A DNA stretch of 64,000 nucleotides, taken from positions 12,759 to 76,758 of the IMG/VR virus record IMGVR_UViG_3300023174_000140. One strand, given 5' to 3'. Source of the stretch: a virus. The translations under genes were made by a program, and so were the position numbers. The notes under the pieces are model-generated. The model ran no database searches. It was not told the DNA's origin and saw only the letters and a program-made list of their open reading frames with translations. Every line of letters begins with the position of its first letter. Position 1 is the first letter of the stretch. Of the stretch, positions 4,481 through 26,618 are shown in pieces.

Positions 4481-4830
4481 TGGCTAATCCATACCATCAT
4501 TCTGTCTCTTCGTCAAAGAAGTGGGGTGGAACGCCCGAAGATTATCAGAGGATTCATGATTGGTTTGATGAGAGTAAGATGATGATGGCAGACTTTAGAC
4601 ATAGAGCTTTGCGACATCATGCCGAGGGCATCTTTATGTGTGAGAGAATATTTGGCAATACCATCACGCTATCCAACGGCAAAAAGATTCCTACTCGTTG
4701 GGTTGGCGAACAGCATGTTGCAGAGGACTTGGGATTTATTCCATCTATGCAAGATTGGCTTAAACATATTATGCCAGAACCTTGGATGGGCAAAACAAAG
4801 AAACTTGATGTGGAGTTAAATCCAGCATAA
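4480..4830 (+). CDS. DUF6915-like protein
   Basis: MANPYHHSVSS.KKWGG...IHDWFDESK...HRALRHHAEGIF...GEQHV.EDLGFIPS..DWL. Confidence 0.8.
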   Translation: MANPYHHSVSSSKKWGGTPEDYQRIHDWFDESKMMMADFRHRALRHHAEGIFMCERIFGNTITLSNGKKIPTRWVGEQHVAEDLGFIPSMQDWLKHIMPEPWMGKTKKLDVELNPA

Positions 4831-5100
4831 ACTTTTGGTGAGGTGATGGTGGTCATCGGTGGTCACTCCGTTATAGTGAATCGTTTGCAAGTATCGAAAA
4901 ACTTGCACTGTTTTTTAAAAAAAAGTTCTACAAGATATTGTATTTGATGTATAATAGGTTGTATGAGCGAAAAACAAATGGAGAAAAATTTATCATATGG
5001 AGATTGTTTTAATTTTTTTGGGAGTCTGTTTAGCAATTTGGTGGGAAATATTGAAGTAAGAGAACTTGACGAAAAGGAAAAAAACAATTAATATATAAAT

Positions 5101-5287
5101 AGTAGAAGGCAGGGTCTCAAATGCGAGGCACTGCAAAGGAAGAGAGCCAAGGCGCCCTATATCTCTTTCGTTCCTTCTGCACTGATTTCCGCACGAAATC
5201 AAGGATTGGATGTTGAGGTGATTGCGGGATTAACCTCGACCATATATCCTTTGAGCGTTTTTTGGTGTCGCAGAAACCATATTTTTT
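5101..5287 (+). ncRNA. putative pseudoknotted structured RNA upstream of tRNA-Asp
   Basis: Own promoter (TTGACG 5066, TAATAT 5089); GC-rich non-coding; stems GTAGAAGG/CCTTCTGC, TGATTTC/GAAATCA, AAGGAT..GAGG/CCTC..ATCCTT; loop-loop CCGCA/TGCGG. Confidence 0.65.
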
Positions 5288-5292
5288 TCAAA

Positions 5293-5366
5293 GGAATCGT
5301 AGCTTAATTGGTTAAAGCACCGCCCTGTCACGGCGGGGAGTGAGGGTTCAAGTCCCTTCGATTCCG
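5293..5366 (+). tRNA. tRNA-Asp(GUC)
   Basis: GGAATCG/CGATTCC acceptor, CCGCC-CTGTCAC-GGCGG anticodon arm, TTCAAGT T-loop, G73. Confidence 0.95.
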
Positions 5367-5403
5367 AATTGACAAAAAATAATAATCTAAATAATATAAA
5401 GTT

Positions 5404-5619
5404 ATGCGTAAAATTATATTCTTATTTATATTAATATCTTTTAATTCTTTTGCAGATCAAGATCCATTTTGCACAGCCAAAATAGATTGTAAATGTAGAT
5501 GTGTGCAAAACAGCAAGTTTAATATATGTTTATGTAGCACACCTTGCAAAACTAAAATGCCAGAAATATCTGCAAAAATAGATAAAGAAAATAATAAAAT
5601 AGAACTTAATCTACCATAA
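5404..5619 (+). CDS. small secreted Cys-rich protein
   Basis: Signal peptide (..SFA-D), 7 Cys; leaderless after TTGACA..TAATAT. Confidence 0.6.
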   Translation: MRKIIFLFILISFNSFADQDPFCTAKIDCKCRCVQNSKFNICLCSTPCKTKMPEISAKIDKENNKIELNLP

Positions 5620-5773
5620 ATATATGAGCGACATTCCAATTGTAACAAGCAAAAGTAAAATAAGATGTTTTATAGAAGCTATGGCTATTACTATTATAGC
5701 TTTAAGTGGATGGATTGCTTTTGTTTATTTTATTTACTTGACAGATTAACAAAATAAATATATATTTATATTT

Positions 5774-5994
5774 GCAGGACAGATTGTGTCGAAGCGAACT
5801 GGCGTAGGCATACGACCACTCGCGGAGCCAAAGTAATCTGGAGGGGTCGCACCCTTGAGGTAGAAGGGCATCTACAAAGATGCGCCTAAACTACACCGCG
5901 TCTGTTGCGAAACAGAGGTTCACAATCGGTAATGGGCAGATCTGAGGATCTGAAAAGGTAAGCAATAAAAACTTATCGTGCCTAGTCCTTTTTT
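5774..5994 (+). ncRNA. putative large multi-stem structured RNA (~215 nt)
   Basis: Promoter TTGACA 5738/TATATT 5761; closing stem AGGAC/GTCCT followed by a T-run; GATTGTG/CACAATC; GNRA-capped hairpins CGTA-GGCA-TACG and TCTGTT-GCGA-AACAGA; GCATCT/AGATGC; CAGATC/GATCTG. Confidence 0.75.
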
Positions 5995-6029
5995 CTTTAC
6001 TTATTTTTAATTTAACTTATATTTAATAG

Positions 6030-6284
6030 ATGAACAGCACATACCAATACATAGCAAACTATATCAACAAGCCCACATACTTTTGTTATGTTGTAGATCG
6101 TGTGGTTAATACAAATCCTTATTTGTTTACTGGCGAGTATAATAAAAAATTAATAAATAAGAAAGTATGGGTTGCTAAACAAGTATATCCAATGTGTATG
6201 CCAGAACAATATACCTATTTCAAAACACTCAAAGAATTAAAAGCCGCGTTAAATAGATGGGGCGCGAGTTGGGTAAGAGCTTGA
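6030..6284 (+). CDS. hypothetical protein
   Basis: ORF with promoter immediately upstream. Confidence 0.6.
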   Translation: MNSTYQYIANYINKPTYFCYVVDRVVNTNPYLFTGEYNKKLINKKVWVAKQVYPMCMPEQYTYFKTLKELKAALNRWGASWVRA

Positions 6285-6314
6285 CTTAATAATAATTTAA
6301 GTTATATTAAATAT

Positions 6315-6551
6315 ATGGCATCAACAAAAACAAACTCCCAACCTACCTTAACATCAAGAAGTGTTAAGATGTATTATCAATTTAAGATTGGCCCTGCTGA
6401 TTATGAAGTGATAGAATCCTTTGATGGTAATAATGAATTATGTTTTAGAGAAATAAAGAGGTCAGATTGGGGTGGCTCATATAGTGTTACCAATGAATCA
6501 TTAAGAAAGAAATTAATTAAAGCGGCGAAACAATATAGAATATTTAATTGA
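6315..6551 (+). CDS. hypothetical protein, leaderless
   Basis: TTGACT..TATATT-N6-ATG. Confidence 0.65.
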   Translation: MASTKTNSQPTLTSRSVKMYYQFKIGPADYEVIESFDGNNELCFREIKRSDWGGSYSVTNESLRKKLIKAAKQYRIFN

Positions 6552-6581
6552 CTAAATAATAATTTAGATTATATTCTATTT

Positions 6582-6866
6582 ATGACTAAAACATTCAAAA
6601 TAGGCGAGACAGCACTTGGTGGAACTATCAAGGTAAGTATTCCTAAAACCTTAACTAATATTAAGATAGATGTTATTTCTACTAATCATATTACCAGAGG
6701 TTCGTGTGATGCACCATACTTAATTAATCAGTATATCTATTATAGCTTTGATAGGATTAGAATTGAAAGAGATTTGTTTCAAATAGTAAGTGGTTACTGG
6801 TCAGATCAGATCCTTAAATGGATTACTAGCAAGTGGCAAATAGAGATTCCTAAAAATATAATTTGA
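6582..6866 (+). CDS. hypothetical protein, leaderless
   Basis: TTGACT..TATATT-N6-ATG. Confidence 0.65.
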   Translation: MTKTFKIGETALGGTIKVSIPKTLTNIKIDVISTNHITRGSCDAPYLINQYIYYSFDRIRIERDLFQIVSGYWSDQILKWITSKWQIEIPKNII

Positions 6867-6890
6867 CAATAAATATAAAAGGAGTATATT
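6863..6890 (+). promoter_or_regulatory. representative sigma70-like early promoter (TTGACA-N16/17-TATATT), leaderless
   Basis: Similar promoters precede ATGs at 3679, 3971, 5404, 6315, 6582, 6897, 7547, 8173, 9215, 10145, 10727, 11121, 12198, 13247, 14199. Confidence 0.75.
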
Positions 6891-6896
6891 AAAAAT

Positions 6897-7133
6897 ATGA
6901 ACAACACCGAAAAACCCCTAAAGAAATTCACGATTCGTATGCAACGCAACCAAATCGCAGAAGTGGACATCGAGGTGGAGGCCACATCAGATGAGGAAGC
7001 GGTTGATAAGGCAACAGAGATGGCTGAGAATTGCACAGACGCAAATGGCTTTATGCTCGATTGGGATGAGGTTGATTATAACTTTGAAGCTATTGATGTC
7101 GAGGAAGAAGAGGAGGACGAAGATGAAGCTTAG
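6897..7133 (+). CDS. highly acidic small protein
   Basis: D/E-rich (…DVEEEEEDEDEA); TTGACA..TATATT-N6-ATG. Confidence 0.7.
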   Translation: MNNTEKPLKKFTIRMQRNQIAEVDIEVEATSDEEAVDKATEMAENCTDANGFMLDWDEVDYNFEAIDVEEEEEDEDEA

Positions 7134-7546
7134 GTCGCAAATTGTCAAAGAAATCAGTGATAGGATTGAGGAATATAAAGGTCTGCAAATTGATCACGAC
7201 AATAACCAAGATGTTGTGCATGAACTAAATAGCGTAATTAATGAACTAGAAAATATATTGGAATGGATTAATGAGTAATGCACCTTTATATTTTGCTATT
7301 ATATTAAGTATTGTTTTTGCTGTTTATATATATTTTAGCTACAATGAATAAGTTATTTTGTATTGAAATACTACAAGAGAAACCAGTAATATCATTTGAT
7401 GAATTACTATTAGTTAAATATGAAATAGATAATAGTGAAATAAGAGTTGATTAATAATAAATAGATGATAGCAGTATAGTGATTATAGAATATATATTTT
7501 AATTTTGGGCTATTGACATTAAACTAATTTGGTATATTATTAGCCT

Positions 7547-7999
7547 ATGAAGCTAATTAATACTACCTCATATTGTTCTGAAAAGTTAAAAGAAATTATT
7601 AAATGGTGCTTGCCCCAAGGATTGCACCTTAAAGATATTAGAAAAATAGACTTTGGTAATACCAAAATTGGTTGGCATGGCAGAGCATGGGGAAGCATGA
7701 GGGTGCATATTGCAGTTCCAAATTATTCTATTTATAAAAAGCCTTATAAGAGTGGAGGGTTTAGAGGATATTTACCAGTTAAGAGTTATAGCTGGGAAGA
7801 ATCATTAGTAGAATTAGTTGCCCATGAAGTAAGACATATATGGCAATACAAGAAAGATAAGTTCTATCATGGTATTAAAAAGATAAGAAAATATAATATG
7901 GGTACTAGGGCTAAATTAAGTGAAGTAGATGCTAGTTTATATGCTATTAGAAAGATAAGAGAATATAGAAAGAGTAGTATTAAATTTAATTTGGTTTGA
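7547..7999 (+). CDS. HEXXH zincin-like metallopeptidase-fold protein
   Basis: LVAHEVRHIWQY plus a downstream E (SEVDA). Confidence 0.65.
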   Translation: MKLINTTSYCSEKLKEIIKWCLPQGLHLKDIRKIDFGNTKIGWHGRAWGSMRVHIAVPNYSIYKKPYKSGGFRGYLPVKSYSWEESLVELVAHEVRHIWQYKKDKFYHGIKKIRKYNMGTRAKLSEVDASLYAIRKIREYRKSSIKFNLV

Positions 8000-9214: not shown

Positions 9215-9556
9215 ATGAAAGCCAAACATAAAGTATATTATAATTTACATAAGCATTGTCTTTCTATTATGCTTCGTGGTAAAGTATTAGAGCATAGCAC
9301 AGAATTCTTTTTGAAGGATGTAGAGTTTAGAGTGAGTCAAGCTGGCAGAAACAGAGTATTAAAAGAACAAAGAAAGAATGTTCACGCTTTTGTGTGTGGC
9401 ACTCCAGATGATGGATGGCCAATAGATCAAACTGAAAGAAAGGTTACCTATAATCCTTATAAGTTTAATAGTTTTGTTTATTCTGATACTCTTGAGCCAG
9501 TATATAAAGCTAAATGGGTTGGAGTTATTAATCGTGATATTTTTGTCTTGAATTAA
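9215..9556 (+). CDS. conserved phage hypothetical protein
   Basis: VYYNLHK...F.VSQAGR.RVLKEQRKNVHAFV...VTYNPYK motif, familiar from other phages. Confidence 0.75.
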   Translation: MKAKHKVYYNLHKHCLSIMLRGKVLEHSTEFFLKDVEFRVSQAGRNRVLKEQRKNVHAFVCGTPDDGWPIDQTERKVTYNPYKFNSFVYSDTLEPVYKAKWVGVINRDIFVLN

Positions 9557-10381: not shown

Positions 10382-10568
10382 GTATATCGTTTTGCGAGAT
10401 GGAGTTCGTGTGAGTGAAGATATGCACTCAAAGATTGAAGATGCCGAGCAAGAAGCGGAGTTTTGGCGTAAAGTCATCCGCTCTTGGCCTGATGGAACGA
10501 AAGTTACCATCAAGAAAATCGGTGGATAACTTCGGAGGCTGACATTGAGCTACGGCTTAGTGTTGATT

Positions 10569-10659
10569 GCTAGGGTCGTCTAACTGGTTAAGACCCACGA
10601 CTTATACTCGTGAAGCTCTAGATTTGAGCGTAATGAAGGTTCGAATCCTTCCCCTAGTA
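10569..10659 (+). tRNA. tRNA with UAU anticodon (Ile, AUA) and long variable arm
   Basis: GCTAGGG/CCCTAGT-A acceptor, CACGA-CTTATAC-TCGTG, 22-nt V region with GCTC/GAGC stem, GAAGG-TTCGAAT-CCTTC. Confidence 0.85.
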
Positions 10660-10921
10660 TGTAAAGCCTTATCATTCAACGAATTATTTTTATTGACTAT
10701 TTCTCTAACTCTTGTATATTAAACCTATGACAAACAAACAATCAGTTCCATTCTATGTGATGAATGTGTTCGGCCAAGATCGAGCTATCATCCTAAACAC
10801 CTCAATCCGTATGTGCACAACCAAAGAGACTTGTTCTCTCAAAGACTTGGAAAATTATGCCAAGGCTTTTGCAGTAGAGTTCTTTCAAGTGCCAAAACCT
10901 TCCAGCTTTCCAGCTAAAGTG

Positions 10922-12549: not shown

Positions 12550-12767
12550 TTAGTTCTTCGATATCAGAGAAGGTTGACCGCAAGGTTGCAGTTCTGGAAA
12601 GTTTCTAATGGAAACATTAGTTATATATAACGGAACGCCAATACTTCTCTTGGCGAGTCTGACTAACTCCCATAAGAGGATGAACCTGCCAACGCCCAGA
12701 GTCAGAGGCGAAAGAGGAGCAGGATATTCCTTTACGAAATCATGAGCGTAGAGGGTCGAAGAACTAA
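12550..12767 (+). ncRNA. putative large structured RNA (~218 nt) with pseudoknot
   Basis: 12-bp closing stem TTAGTTCTTCGA/TCGAAGAACTAA; GNRA hairpins GACC-GCAA-GGTT and CTAATG-GAAA-CATTAG; CCTGC/GCAGG; TCTGACT pairs with loop AGTCAGA; promoter TTGCAG 12518/TAAGAT 12540. Confidence 0.78.
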
Positions 12768-14198: not shown

Positions 14199-14834
14199 AT
14201 GTTCAAAAACAAAAAACAAGCCGAAGAGATTGTTGGCACACTCTCAAAACCCTCAAAGATGCCTGGATATGCTTATTCAACGCCCGCAAAGCGTTGTCTT
14301 ATCGGGCAGAAAATGCGGAATGTTGTAGGAAGCATTTGTGCTTTTTGCTATGCTCTTAAAGGGCGTTATGTTTTCCCCAATGTTCAAAAAGCTATGGAAA
14401 AGCGTTTTGCTTCTCTTACCAATGATTTGTGGGTGGATGCTATGACATACTTAATCGGCAAGGTTAAGAATCCGCATTTCAGGTGGCACGATTCGGGCGA
14501 TTTGCAAGGTGTGTGGCATATTGAAAAGATTGTGAAGATTGCAAAGAATCTTCCTCACATTTCTTTTTGGCTTCCAACTCGTGAATATGCTTTCGTTTCA
14601 ACCTATATTGAACAAGGCGGTGAAGTTCCTAGCAATCTTACTATCCGTTTGTCTGCTCTGATGATGGATGGCCCCGCACCCGTAGGAATTGCACAACGCC
14701 TTGGCTTATGCGTTAGCGGTGCAAGCAAGTTAGGAAACTTTAACTGCCCAAGCTCCAAGCAAGGCAACAAGTGCGGTGATTGTCGCAAGTGTTGGGATAA
14801 AAATGAGTTTGCAATCGACTATAAAAAGCATTAA
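14199..14834 (+). CDS. phage gp88-like protein (Cys-rich, radical-SAM-like fold)
   Basis: LSKPSKMPG...C...CAFCYA...FRWHDSGD...WLPTRE...CGDCRKCW. Confidence 0.8.
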   Translation: MFKNKKQAEEIVGTLSKPSKMPGYAYSTPAKRCLIGQKMRNVVGSICAFCYALKGRYVFPNVQKAMEKRFASLTNDLWVDAMTYLIGKVKNPHFRWHDSGDLQGVWHIEKIVKIAKNLPHISFWLPTREYAFVSTYIEQGGEVPSNLTIRLSALMMDGPAPVGIAQRLGLCVSGASKLGNFNCPSSKQGNKCGDCRKCWDKNEFAIDYKKH

Positions 14835-24590: not shown

Positions 24591-26618
24591 ATGAAAATAA
24601 ACCTACTAAAAAGGTTACTAAAAAACACAGCCGCAAAATTAATTGCGGCTTTTTTAATGTCTGGAGCTGTTCAAGAATCTCAAGCAGTAAATTTCTTATG
24701 GAATAATACTGGCACACAATGGACATCTCCAACTAGCTGGACAAATAACGCTCAACCAACCTCTACCACTACAACTGGTACAGATGTTGTTCAGTTTAGT
24801 AACTATGGTGCAAATTTTAATACTGTAGATTTAACTTCTACAAGAACAGCTCAAAAACTTGAGTTTTTTAGTGGAGCAAATGCTTATACATTTACAACTG
24901 CAAGCAGTAAGCTACTTGAAACAGCATCTGGCGGAATCACTAACGCTTCATCATCTATACAAACTTTTAATTTACGAGTTAATAATAGCGGTGGCAATTA
25001 TACTTGGTTTACAGCTAGTGGAGGAGGTCTTACGTTTAATCAACAAGTAGGATTAACCACAGATGCGTCTAGTACTTCTAGGACTCTTACTCTTGCTGGA
25101 GATGGTGCATATATATTTAATAATAACCTTATAAACAATGGTACAAGTTTAGCTCCTGCTGCTAAAGTAATTTATACAGGTAATGGCAGTATTACATTTA
25201 ATGGTACAAACGTAATTGGAGGTTCTGGTGGAGGTGGTTTTGATATAACAGGAAGTGGCACTGTTAATGTAAATGGTGGAACTGGTGTTGGACAAGGATT
25301 GGTAACATTAGGTGGAGCAAGTGGAACAACAAATGTACCTATATTAAAAATTAATACTGCAAATGGTTTATCTACTCTTAGCAGCTTGAAGGGATCAACT
25401 AGTTTATCTACAATGGGAACGCTAGATTTGCTAGGATCAAATCCTGATGCTGTTACTACTTTTATCATGAATCAGTATCAAGGCAATAATATGAATTTTA
25501 CAAATCATGGCGGAGGTAAAACATTGCTTCAATTTACTAATTCTGCTAATACATTAACTGTATCTACTGGTAATAGTGGTGGCAGAAGGATGTTCAACAA
25601 TAGTACAAACTTACTAGTGCAATTTGATGGTACATTAGATGTTGGATCTACTACAGCAGATTATAATGTTGTTGGAGGTATTGGAGATTTCTTATTTAAA
25701 GGATCTTTGCTTAATACTGGTTCTGCAATCAGAGGGCTTACAAAAACAGGATTAGGAACAGTAACTCTAGAAGGAGTTAATTCTTATAATGGAGATACAA
25801 CAGTACAAGAAGGAAAATTACTAGTTAATACAACTGGTTCTATATTATCAAGTTCTGCTATAGTTTCTGGAGGAACTCTTCAAGTCAAAGGAGTTGCAGG
25901 TGGAGTAACTCTAAATAGCGGAAATTTACTTGTAGATAATGGTGGTACAGTTGGATCTACAACAGTTGGAGGTGGTACTCTATTAGTTTCTGGTACAGCT
26001 GGAACAACTATAGTTAATGCTGGAACAGCTACAGTAAATTTAGGTGGCACTATTGGAAGTACCACAATTAATGGAAGTTTACTTTCCGTAAATGGACGCG
26101 CAGGAGATGTTATAGTAAATACAGGAGGTACATTAGGTGGCTCTGGTAGTGTGCAAGGCTTGACTTTAAATGGTGGTATTGTGGCCCCTGGCAATAGCCC
26201 TGGTCTGCTTACTGCTTATGATTTAAATGGAAGCAACGGAACATTTGCATTCCAAATAGGCGCGCCCACTACTAGAGGAGTCACCTACGACGCTATCAAT
26301 GTTACTAATTTATTAACTTTTGGATCAAATTCAAATTTTACATTTGAAGTATTAGATACTTATAATTTCTCTAGTGGAGATTCATATGATCTATTTAACT
26401 TTGGAAGTATTGATGCTACAAATTTTGATATAACAAAACTAGATATTGCATTACCAACTTTAAATTCAACTGATCTAAGTTGGAATACTAGTTCATTTAC
26501 AACGGATGGAATAGTTAGCGTTGTTGCTAATGTTCCAGAACCATCTGCGATACAATTATTTGGAATTGGTTTGATTTCTCTACTTGCTTGTCGTAGAATA
26601 TCTAAAAGAAATGGATAA
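24591..26618 (+). CDS. PEP-CTERM surface protein with autotransporter-associated beta-strand repeat
   Basis: Signal peptide; LTKTGLGTVTLEGVNSYNGDTTVQEGKL repeat; APGNSPG; C-terminal VPEPS-TM-RR. Confidence 0.9.
   Translation: MKINLLKRLLKNTAAKLIAAFLMSGAVQESQAVNFLWNNTGTQWTSPTSWTNNAQPTSTTTTGTDVVQFSNYGANFNTVDLTSTRTAQKLEFFSGANAYTFTTASSKLLETASGGITNASSSIQTFNLRVNNSGGNYTWFTASGGGLTFNQQVGLTTDASSTSRTLTLAGDGAYIFNNNLINNGTSLAPAAKVIYTGNGSITFNGTNVIGGSGGGGFDITGSGTVNVNGGTGVGQGLVTLGGASGTTNVPILKINTANGLSTLSSLKGSTSLSTMGTLDLLGSNPDAVTTFIMNQYQGNNMNFTNHGGGKTLLQFTNSANTLTVSTGNSGGRRMFNNSTNLLVQFDGTLDVGSTTADYNVVGGIGDFLFKGSLLNTGSAIRGLTKTGLGTVTLEGVNSYNGDTTVQEGKLLVNTTGSILSSSAIVSGGTLQVKGVAGGVTLNSGNLLVDNGGTVGSTTVGGGTLLVSGTAGTTIVNAGTATVNLGGTIGSTTINGSLLSVNGRAGDVIVNTGGTLGGSGSVQGLTLNGGIVAPGNSPGLLTAYDLNGSNGTFAFQIGAPTTRGVTYDAINVTNLLTFGSNSNFTFEVLDTYNFSSGDSYDLFNFGSIDATNFDITKLDIALPTLNSTDLSWNTSSFTTDGIVSVVANVPEPSAIQLFGIGLISLLACRRISKRNG

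Follow-up and report, generated by a model that had tools for sequence, protein, structure and literature searches.

A stand-alone structured RNA gene in the variable early region of an uncultured freshwater phage

Genomic context of the RNA gene

The window analyzed in this study, a stretch of 64,000 nt, is part of a 76.7-kb viral record in IMG/VR with an estimated completeness of approximately 50%. The source phage is an uncultured, AT-rich freshwater phage, whose large terminase is at most 27% identical to that of any cultured phage. More than 490 related terminases were found in IMG/VR, and the contigs of these relatives reached up to 166 kb. A host search with terminase patterns against GTDB genomes yielded no relative. 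The host hints in the window (9215-9556, 14199-14834, and 24591-26618) disagreed, with Pfam matches to the mycobacteriophage L5 gp82 and GP88 families on one side and, on the other, a 675-aa protein that ends in a weak PEP-CTERM motif, a feature characteristic of Gram-negative bacteria.

The RNA locus lies in an early region dense with short self-promoted ORFs and tRNA genes, together with anti-restriction, DUF932, and GP88-like genes located 2-9 kb downstream of the RNA. Five tRNA genes were identified in the window by ARAGORN, in agreement with Rfam: tRNA-Asp is located 408 nt upstream of the RNA and the other four lie 4.6-5.7 kb downstream. The 93-nt length of the tRNA-Ile gene (anticodon UAU, plus strand, 10568-10660) points to a long variable arm, which is unusual for tRNA-Ile. 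Additionally, many early genes look leaderless, because only a few nucleotides separate the -10 box of an early promoter from the ATG of the ORF that follows, and no Shine-Dalgarno sequence is present (5996-6032, 6281-6317, and 6548-6577).

The RNA gene of approximately 221 nt was delimited to positions 5774-5994 of the plus strand on the basis of the fold, the alignment, and a metatranscriptome contig. It forms a GC island, with a GC content of 49% over 5774-5994 (45-56%) versus 25-30% in the flanks. A sigma-70-type promoter was found at 5738-5766 on the same strand, consisting of the -35 box TTGACA (5738-5743), a 17-nt spacer, and the -10 box TATATT (5761-5766). This promoter matched 11 of 12 consensus positions and was the top-scoring site within 4800-6700. 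A preliminary description of this DNA had called it perfect, which is slightly generous, since the -10 box matches at five of six positions. The -35 box falls inside the last codons of a small ORF (5624-5749), and the promoter was kept in all homologues that reach that far, even beside a different upstream gene.

As had been described, no credible ORF spans the RNA: the plus strand contained no ORF of at least 30 aa across it. The single minus-strand ORF (41 aa, 5746-5871) was broken by indels of 1, 2, and 4 nt in the homologues. The indels of 1, 2, 3, and 4 nt among the homologues exclude a coding reading.

At the 3' end, a tract of six U residues (5989-5994, plus strand), as read from the sequence, directly follows ten paired nucleotides that form the 3' strands of helices P7 and P1. 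The earlier claim that the ends are closed by a stem plus a T-tract thus held for P1 and this U-tract. A simple terminator scanner made no call at 5989-5994, and the end is not a canonical simple terminator hairpin; the 3' end appears to be branched and terminator-like, with the U-tract placed after the co-axial 3' strands of P7 and P1.

Predicted secondary structure

The minimum free energy (MFE) fold of the RNA reached -73.4 kcal/mol (z = -3.38), and none of 200 dinucleotide shuffles folded as well. The architecture consists of a five-way junction closed by P2 and carrying four hairpins (domain 1), plus a two-hairpin domain 2. Domain 1 alone had a z-score of -4.0, and domain 2 alone one of -0.4, which is not significant. 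The minus strand folded almost as well (z = -3.28), so the strand is not given by thermodynamics alone. All stems listed in the preliminary description were recovered, with unchanged coordinates, in both the MFE fold and the alignment consensus of eleven copies described below.

The outermost helix P1 (5776-5780 paired with 5985-5989; all elements are on the plus strand) was invariant in the 11 sequences, and P2 (5782-5788 with 5921-5927), which closes domain 1, showed one G-C to G-U change. The P3 hairpin (5794-5823) has a GGCA loop and a helix with compensatory changes. It is followed by J3/4, a 14-nt single-stranded junction (5824-5837) that 10 of the 11 sequences share without change; L108, which is the most diverged copy, has a single substitution or other change in it. 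The P4 hairpin (5838-5859) has a conserved apical loop and an ambiguous register; P4 of L108 fits a shifted register with a 5-nt loop. The P5 hairpin (5860-5894) includes an internal loop, formed by a CCUAAA strand facing a GAAGG strand, which appears to resemble a tetraloop receptor. Its apical loop is ACAA in the window and GCAA or GAAA in 8 of 10 homologues, some of which have insertions of 2-4 nt near the P5 apex. The P6 hairpin (5898-5919) bears a GCGA tetraloop and was remodelled, yet still formed a hairpin, in L020 and L108. Domain 2 (5933-5984) comprises P7 (5933-5937 with 5980-5984), P8 (5938-5951), and P9 (5957-5977). P7 showed zero changes among the 11 sequences, and P9, whose A-rich loop has 9 nt, was invariant in all 11 apart from one loop U-to-C change in L020 and L108. 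The description of the loops as GNRA tetraloops was overstated: the GCGA loop of P6 is a true GNRA tetraloop, whereas GGCA, ACAA, and UGAG are not GNRA in the window copy.

Several further elements were considered and dropped. A CGCGG/CCGCG pseudoknot was absent from variants of the L016 type, and a kissing pair between the P4 and P6 loops was lost in L020 and L108. A GGAGG motif that could serve as an anti-Shine-Dalgarno sponge was lost in L108, and a T-arm-like sequence, GGUUCACAAUC, occurred without a flanking stem.

Homologues and structural conservation

A search with a 20-mer invariant among contig variants recovered nine true homologues in JGI metagenomes; a further match, L019, was a chance match. 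A pattern from the 3' domain recovered the more diverged copy L108 in IMG/VR, giving 10 homologues and, with the window, 11 copies. All homologues belong to one phage lineage and occupy the same locus with variable neighbours. A covariance model, R1, was built from ten of the sequences, and all eleven copies were aligned to it. R1 recovered the window's own record and gave a single match in the window, indicating that the RNA is single-copy.

Other searches did not extend this range. Exact scans of IMG/VR with two junction-based patterns gave no match, nor did a junction pattern searched against GTDB genomes, while a gapped junction pattern and a 17-mer gave only chance matches in IMG/VR that were rejected by the covariance model. 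R1 found no copy in 29 terminase-related IMG/VR contigs, among the five longest of which one covers the early locus, partly. A blastn search of the RNA against 50,697 phage records found nothing.

In the alignment, which was fitted to the model and contains close relatives (84-96% identical), standard pairs occupied 99.5% of 746 pair cells, compared with 35-46% when the partners were slid by 1-3 columns. The covariation score was 0.111 versus 0.077 ± 0.005 in shuffles and was reached by 0 of 500 shuffles, in a control that ignores phylogeny. In P3, both partners had changed in 5 of 12 pairs, one position occurred as three different types of pair, and a transcript variant found in a lake metatranscriptome (X17) and in L108 represents a further re-paired version of this helix. 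The changes in other stems were exchanges between G-C or A-U pairs and G-U wobbles, except for two broken cells. Both broken cells lie in P4 of L108, where a one-step register shift largely repairs them; P4 was invariant in the other ten copies. Read on the minus strand, each of these G-U pairs would become an A-C mismatch, which, together with the promoter and the U-tract, fixes the strand of the RNA as plus. In addition, L108 folded independently into the same architecture.

Informative variation was absent from six of the nine named stems (eleven helix segments counted), and a scan for extra covarying column pairs returned only pairs confounded by two divergent lineages. Because covariation is confined to P3, with the remodelled P6, the full architecture rests on thermodynamics and on the absence of disruptive changes. 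Conservation of the stems had been proposed as a test of the RNA, and it was borne out in part: pairing was kept and P3 covaries, and the other stems, apart from P4 in L108 and the remodelled P6, were invariant or showed wobble changes only. Across the same eight loci, the mean identity of the RNA was 94.5%, compared with 84.3% for the adjacent ORF.

Transcript evidence

The expression data are assembled contigs of public runs, and the contig ends are hence not measured transcript ends and give no measured strand. In the lake metatranscriptome X17, a 217-nt contig with a depth of 80 covered approximately 5766-5981 and stopped before the U-tract. This contig is an L108-type variant, the first 59 nt of which carry the re-paired P3. 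The depth in X17 was at most 1 over 5674-5755, just upstream of the RNA. This upstream segment is nearly identical in L108 and the window, so contigs from it would have matched if present, and the depth contrast between the RNA and the upstream segment would not be explained by DNA contamination. The upstream RNA candidate described below and tRNA-Asp had comparable depths (45-134).

In a second study, a 362-nt RNA-library contig (X15) extended over the RNA from 5731 to 6076. It overruns both ends of the RNA and is therefore uninformative on the boundaries and cannot show a discrete transcript. Another RNA-library run, X16, covered little of the stretch. Transcription as a discrete RNA, a further test raised by the preliminary description, thus found partial support in contig data, through the 217-nt contig in X17. 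From these data it is reasonable, and not conclusive, that the RNA accumulates as a discrete, abundant transcript.

Taken together, the own promoter, the terminator-like end, the conserved fold with some covariation, and the transcript contigs uphold the view of a stand-alone multi-domain structured RNA. We consider it very probable that the locus contains a real, expressed, and structure-constrained non-coding RNA gene.

Presence and absence in related phages

Five close relatives (L002-L006), found via the downstream ORF, all lacked the RNA. In L002, the segment 5750-6007 (plus strand) was absent and position 5749 was joined to 6008, so that only the RNA module was gone. In L003-L006, a longer block (5289-5990, plus strand) was absent, which contains tRNA-Asp, the ORFs at 5404-5619 and 5624-5749, and the RNA; here, 5288 joins approximately 5991. 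The joint from 5749 to 6008 was also found in lake-sample DNA (run X3) at a depth of 472, as was a joint from 5286 to 6017, and contigs with RNA-less joints occurred alongside RNA-carrying contigs in the same lake sample. The occurrence of joints with and without the RNA in one sample indicates a segregating presence/absence polymorphism.

The neighbours of the RNA varied as well. The upstream tRNA-Asp was present in some loci and absent in others, alternative upstream cargo ORFs of 121, 234, and 251 aa were found among the loci, and the usual downstream ORF (the ORF84 homologue) was replaced in L108 by the next gene along. Conservation spans the sequence from the -35 box through the U-tract, and the neighbouring genes each have a similar promoter of their own. 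These limits, together with the self-promoted neighbours, identify the unit of inheritance as the promoter, the RNA, and the terminator. We infer that recombination, acting on the repeats formed by promoter and T-tract sequences, probably shuffles this unit.

The surrounding segment (5289-6030) can be described as a hyperplastic slot with strain-specific self-promoted cassettes, as also seen in L015, L016, L020, L022, L023, and L108. Its cassettes include tRNA-Asp, a 71-aa ORF, small ORFs of 39-41 aa, and ORFs of 121, 234, and 251 aa, and the joints fall at repeated promoter and T-tract sequences. The 71-aa ORF (5404-5619, plus strand) encodes a protein with a signal-peptide-like N-terminus and a cysteine-rich mature part, matching no Pfam family, and was absent from several strains (joint from 5395 to 5616; L024 and L108). 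Moreover, an X15 RNA-library contig (depth 76) contained 216 extra letters between the upstream RNA and tRNA-Asp (window 5288/5292), indicating that some strains have another insert the size of an RNA gene there.

These loci bear on a cis-acting role, in which the RNA would be a leader, riboswitch, or attenuator and the folding of P1 and P7 beside the U-tract would control read-through into the downstream gene. The aptamer-like closing helices do adjoin the U-tract, and the X15 contig reads through to 6076. However, the downstream gene varies by locus and is retained without the RNA in the relatives. Its own promoter directly follows the U-tract, both in the window and in all homologues that extend beyond this point (L020 ends there), the X17 contig stops before the U-tract, and no riboswitch family matched. 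We therefore regard a cis-acting role as highly improbable; a riboswitch or leader was rejected as the identity of the RNA on the grounds that the downstream gene is a different one in L108, is self-promoted, and is still found in the RNA-less relatives L002-L006.

The patchy distribution, the narrow phylogenetic range, and the lack of a known family would also fit a sequence with no current function, that is, a decaying remnant (e.g., of an intron or mobile element) or a well-folding hitch-hiker. Against this, the RNA is more conserved than the neighbouring coding gene (94.5% vs 84.3%), its substitutions preserve pairing, the strong promoter is intact in all copies that reach it, and the RNA is abundant in an RNA library, which makes an absence of function very unlikely.

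Comparison with known RNA families

A scan of the window with Rfam 15 (4227 models) at gathering thresholds returned only the 5 tRNAs. The models include ribozymes, riboswitches, 6S, tmRNA, RNase P, SRP, Y RNA, pRNA, ROOL, GOLLD, raiA, and HEARO. At E ≤ 10 over 5600-6100, four chance-level matches were obtained, outside or at the edge of the RNA, the best of which, at 18 bits, fell short of its gathering score of 50. No RNA-binding protein, reverse transcriptase, Ro, or partner nuclease/recombinase gene was found in the 76.7-kb record (approximately 50% complete). The suggestion that the RNA is of ribozyme scale or a protein scaffold was a guess and gained no support, as no Rfam ribozyme or other family matched at E ≤ 10 and no partner gene lies nearby. 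As far as Rfam and the phage databases show, the RNA is a new family, with a known range of one lineage and 11 copies. It fits the description of a stand-alone phage stable RNA in a tRNA cluster, being non-coding and structured and accumulating as RNA.

Specific identities were rejected one by one. The RNA is bounded by a promoter and a U-tract rather than being embedded in a gene, and had no Intron_gpI match, in contrast to a group I intron; short resemblances to the group I R and S elements were judged to be chance. ARAGORN found just the 5 tRNAs, leaving no tmRNA or tRNA-like RNA. A retron or other reverse transcriptase-associated ncRNA was dismissed because the 76.7-kb record had no RVT_1 match and the neighbouring ORFs (41-94 aa) had no such Pfam match. 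Similarly, a Y RNA was rejected because neither a TROVE match, in a record of 76.7 kb that represents about half of the genome, nor a Y RNA model match was obtained, and an IscB/TnpB omega-RNA or IS110 bridge RNA because no ORF of at least 100 aa occurs in 4830-7547 on either strand.

Phage phi29 expresses its stand-alone prohead RNA (about 170 nt) from an early promoter, and this RNA combines a main domain that contains a junction with a small domain at the 3' end. The RNA described here matched no Rfam model of this kind, and the phage is unrelated, as seen from its terminase (at most 27% identical to those of cultured phages). Close relatives manage without the RNA, as would not be expected of an essential packaging component; a phi29-type packaging RNA was accordingly rejected, given that five close relatives and variants within one lake sample lack the RNA and that the pRNA model gave no match.

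RNAC and RNAD of phage T4, which are cut from a tRNA precursor, are the closest counterparts by context. These two small stable RNAs are encoded in the tRNA region of T4 and have no known biological role (PMC3014915). Like the RNA described here, they are phage-encoded non-coding stable RNAs located among phage tRNA genes; no sequence similarity between them was detected by blastn, and the present RNA is larger, accessory, and equipped with its own promoter and a terminator-like end. A 2023 catalogue, likewise drawn from IMG/VR-type viral contigs and concerned with objects of this kind, listed 10,006 predicted structured RNAs (PMC10690425).

ROOL and GOLLD are RNAs of phages and prophages, often near tRNA islands, that have no known function and form RNA-only cages (PMC12286853). 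They share with the present RNA a complex multi-helix fold, a phage tRNA-island context, and the lack of a known protein partner, and they differ from it in size (roughly 600-800 nt or more vs approximately 220 nt) and in that no covariance model matched. The RNA could thus be an RNA-only machine, either a small self-assembling or catalytic RNA in the manner of ROOL and GOLLD or a new class of ribozyme. This possibility draws on its being phage-encoded in a stable-RNA/tRNA cluster, which is the context of ROOL and GOLLD (PMC12286853), on the conservation of its apical loops and the presence of a receptor-like internal loop, through which tertiary or intermolecular contacts could form, and on the failure to find a protein partner gene. 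On the other hand, no Rfam ribozyme, ROOL, or GOLLD matched even at E ≤ 10, the RNA is three to four times smaller than ROOL/GOLLD, the possible kissing of the P4 and P6 loops was lost in L020 and L108, and the contigs show no cleavage or ligation junctions. An RNA-only machine is therefore quite improbable.

Further candidate RNAs in the lineage

A second stand-alone structured RNA of approximately 190 nt was found upstream (window 5066-5290, plus strand; RNA 5101-5287). It has a promoter of its own (TTGACG-N17-TAATAT, 5066-5094) and ends in a small hairpin and a T-tract just before tRNA-Asp. Unlike the RNA at 5774-5994, it occurred in all relatives that were examined. Across 12 aligned copies, 15 base pairs showed compensatory changes, a comparison with Rfam gave no match, and RNA-library contigs covered it at depths of 45-185. 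This RNA looks like a core RNA gene of the lineage.

A third candidate (window 12550-12767, plus strand) is approximately 218 nt long and closed by a 12-bp terminal helix. Its fold had a z-score of -4.19, with 0 of 200 shuffles as good, and it matched no Rfam family at gathering thresholds, nor R1. Homology of the RNA at 5774-5994 with these two candidates was rejected, because R1 had a single match in the window. Beyond the RNA at 5774-5994, the lineage thus has one other unclassified structured RNA at a minimum, and probably a second one.

Proposed role of the RNA

In our reading, a strong early promoter of sigma-70 type drives the RNA gene, and the transcript ends at the U-tract. Some strains carry the RNA and others lack it because the unit is one cassette in a hyperplastic, self-promoted early region. 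The stable folded RNA may then bind a partner in trans, most probably a host or phage protein, and could act as a decoy, sponge, or scaffold made early in infection. The loops of P3, P4, and P9, the 14-nt junction, and the P5 internal loop would provide surfaces for contact or tertiary folding; their invariance suggests such a function. In addition, the accessory-gene genetics in a region of anti-restriction type favors a trans partner-binding role. As a whole, an independent early ncRNA gene with partner binding in trans is our best explanation, which we put forward at somewhat below even confidence; the partner-binding mechanism itself is, if anything, slightly more tentative. That the RNA is an anti-defence decoy, as previously suggested, is a guess from context, namely an accessory cassette in an early region rich in anti-defence genes.

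The same invariant stretches could instead serve a regulatory small RNA that base-pairs with host or phage mRNAs, with the 5824-5837 junction or the A-rich P9 loop as the seed and the 3' hairpin and U-tail as a chaperone-binding module. Phage-encoded small RNAs are well known, the RNA lies within the small-RNA size range, and the stand-alone promoter and U-tail and the invariant single-stranded stretches suit this role. However, base-pairing small RNAs need far less structure than a five-way junction that carries four conserved hairpins, and complements of the 14-nt junction in the window (at most 3 mismatches) numbered 4 versus 7.1 expected, one of them being the site itself. We consider a base-pairing role unlikely, and the RNA is probably neither a base-pairing regulator nor a leader of the downstream gene.

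Partner binding in trans also has a bolder form, in which the RNA would be an RNA-only effector of counter-defence or host takeover; alternatively, it would be a miniature self-assembling RNA resembling ROOL and GOLLD, and in either case a swappable cassette comparable to protein anti-defence genes. In the counter-defence version, it would be an early, abundant, and tightly folded decoy or sponge that ties up an immune sensor of the host, a nuclease directed at RNA, or a signalling nucleotide. This proposal is speculative, and we rate it as rather improbable.

Significance

Large structured RNAs without a known family are rare, and the phage-borne T4 RNAC and RNAD, ROOL, and GOLLD have for years eluded a functional explanation. 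At approximately 220 nt, the RNA described here is small enough for chemical probing, crystallography, and cryo-EM, and it offers clear boundaries, a natural polymorphism with and without the RNA, and natural variants that already test one helix. Genetically, the RNA behaves like an accessory 'moron' or anti-defence gene. If it were an RNA-only effector, phage counter-measures would extend past proteins and CRISPR-repeat mimics, and together with the RNAs at 5101-5287 and 12550-12767 the lineage would be unusually reliant on structured RNAs. If it is not an effector, it would still be a clean new RNA family, in a lineage with a further strongly covarying unclassified RNA.
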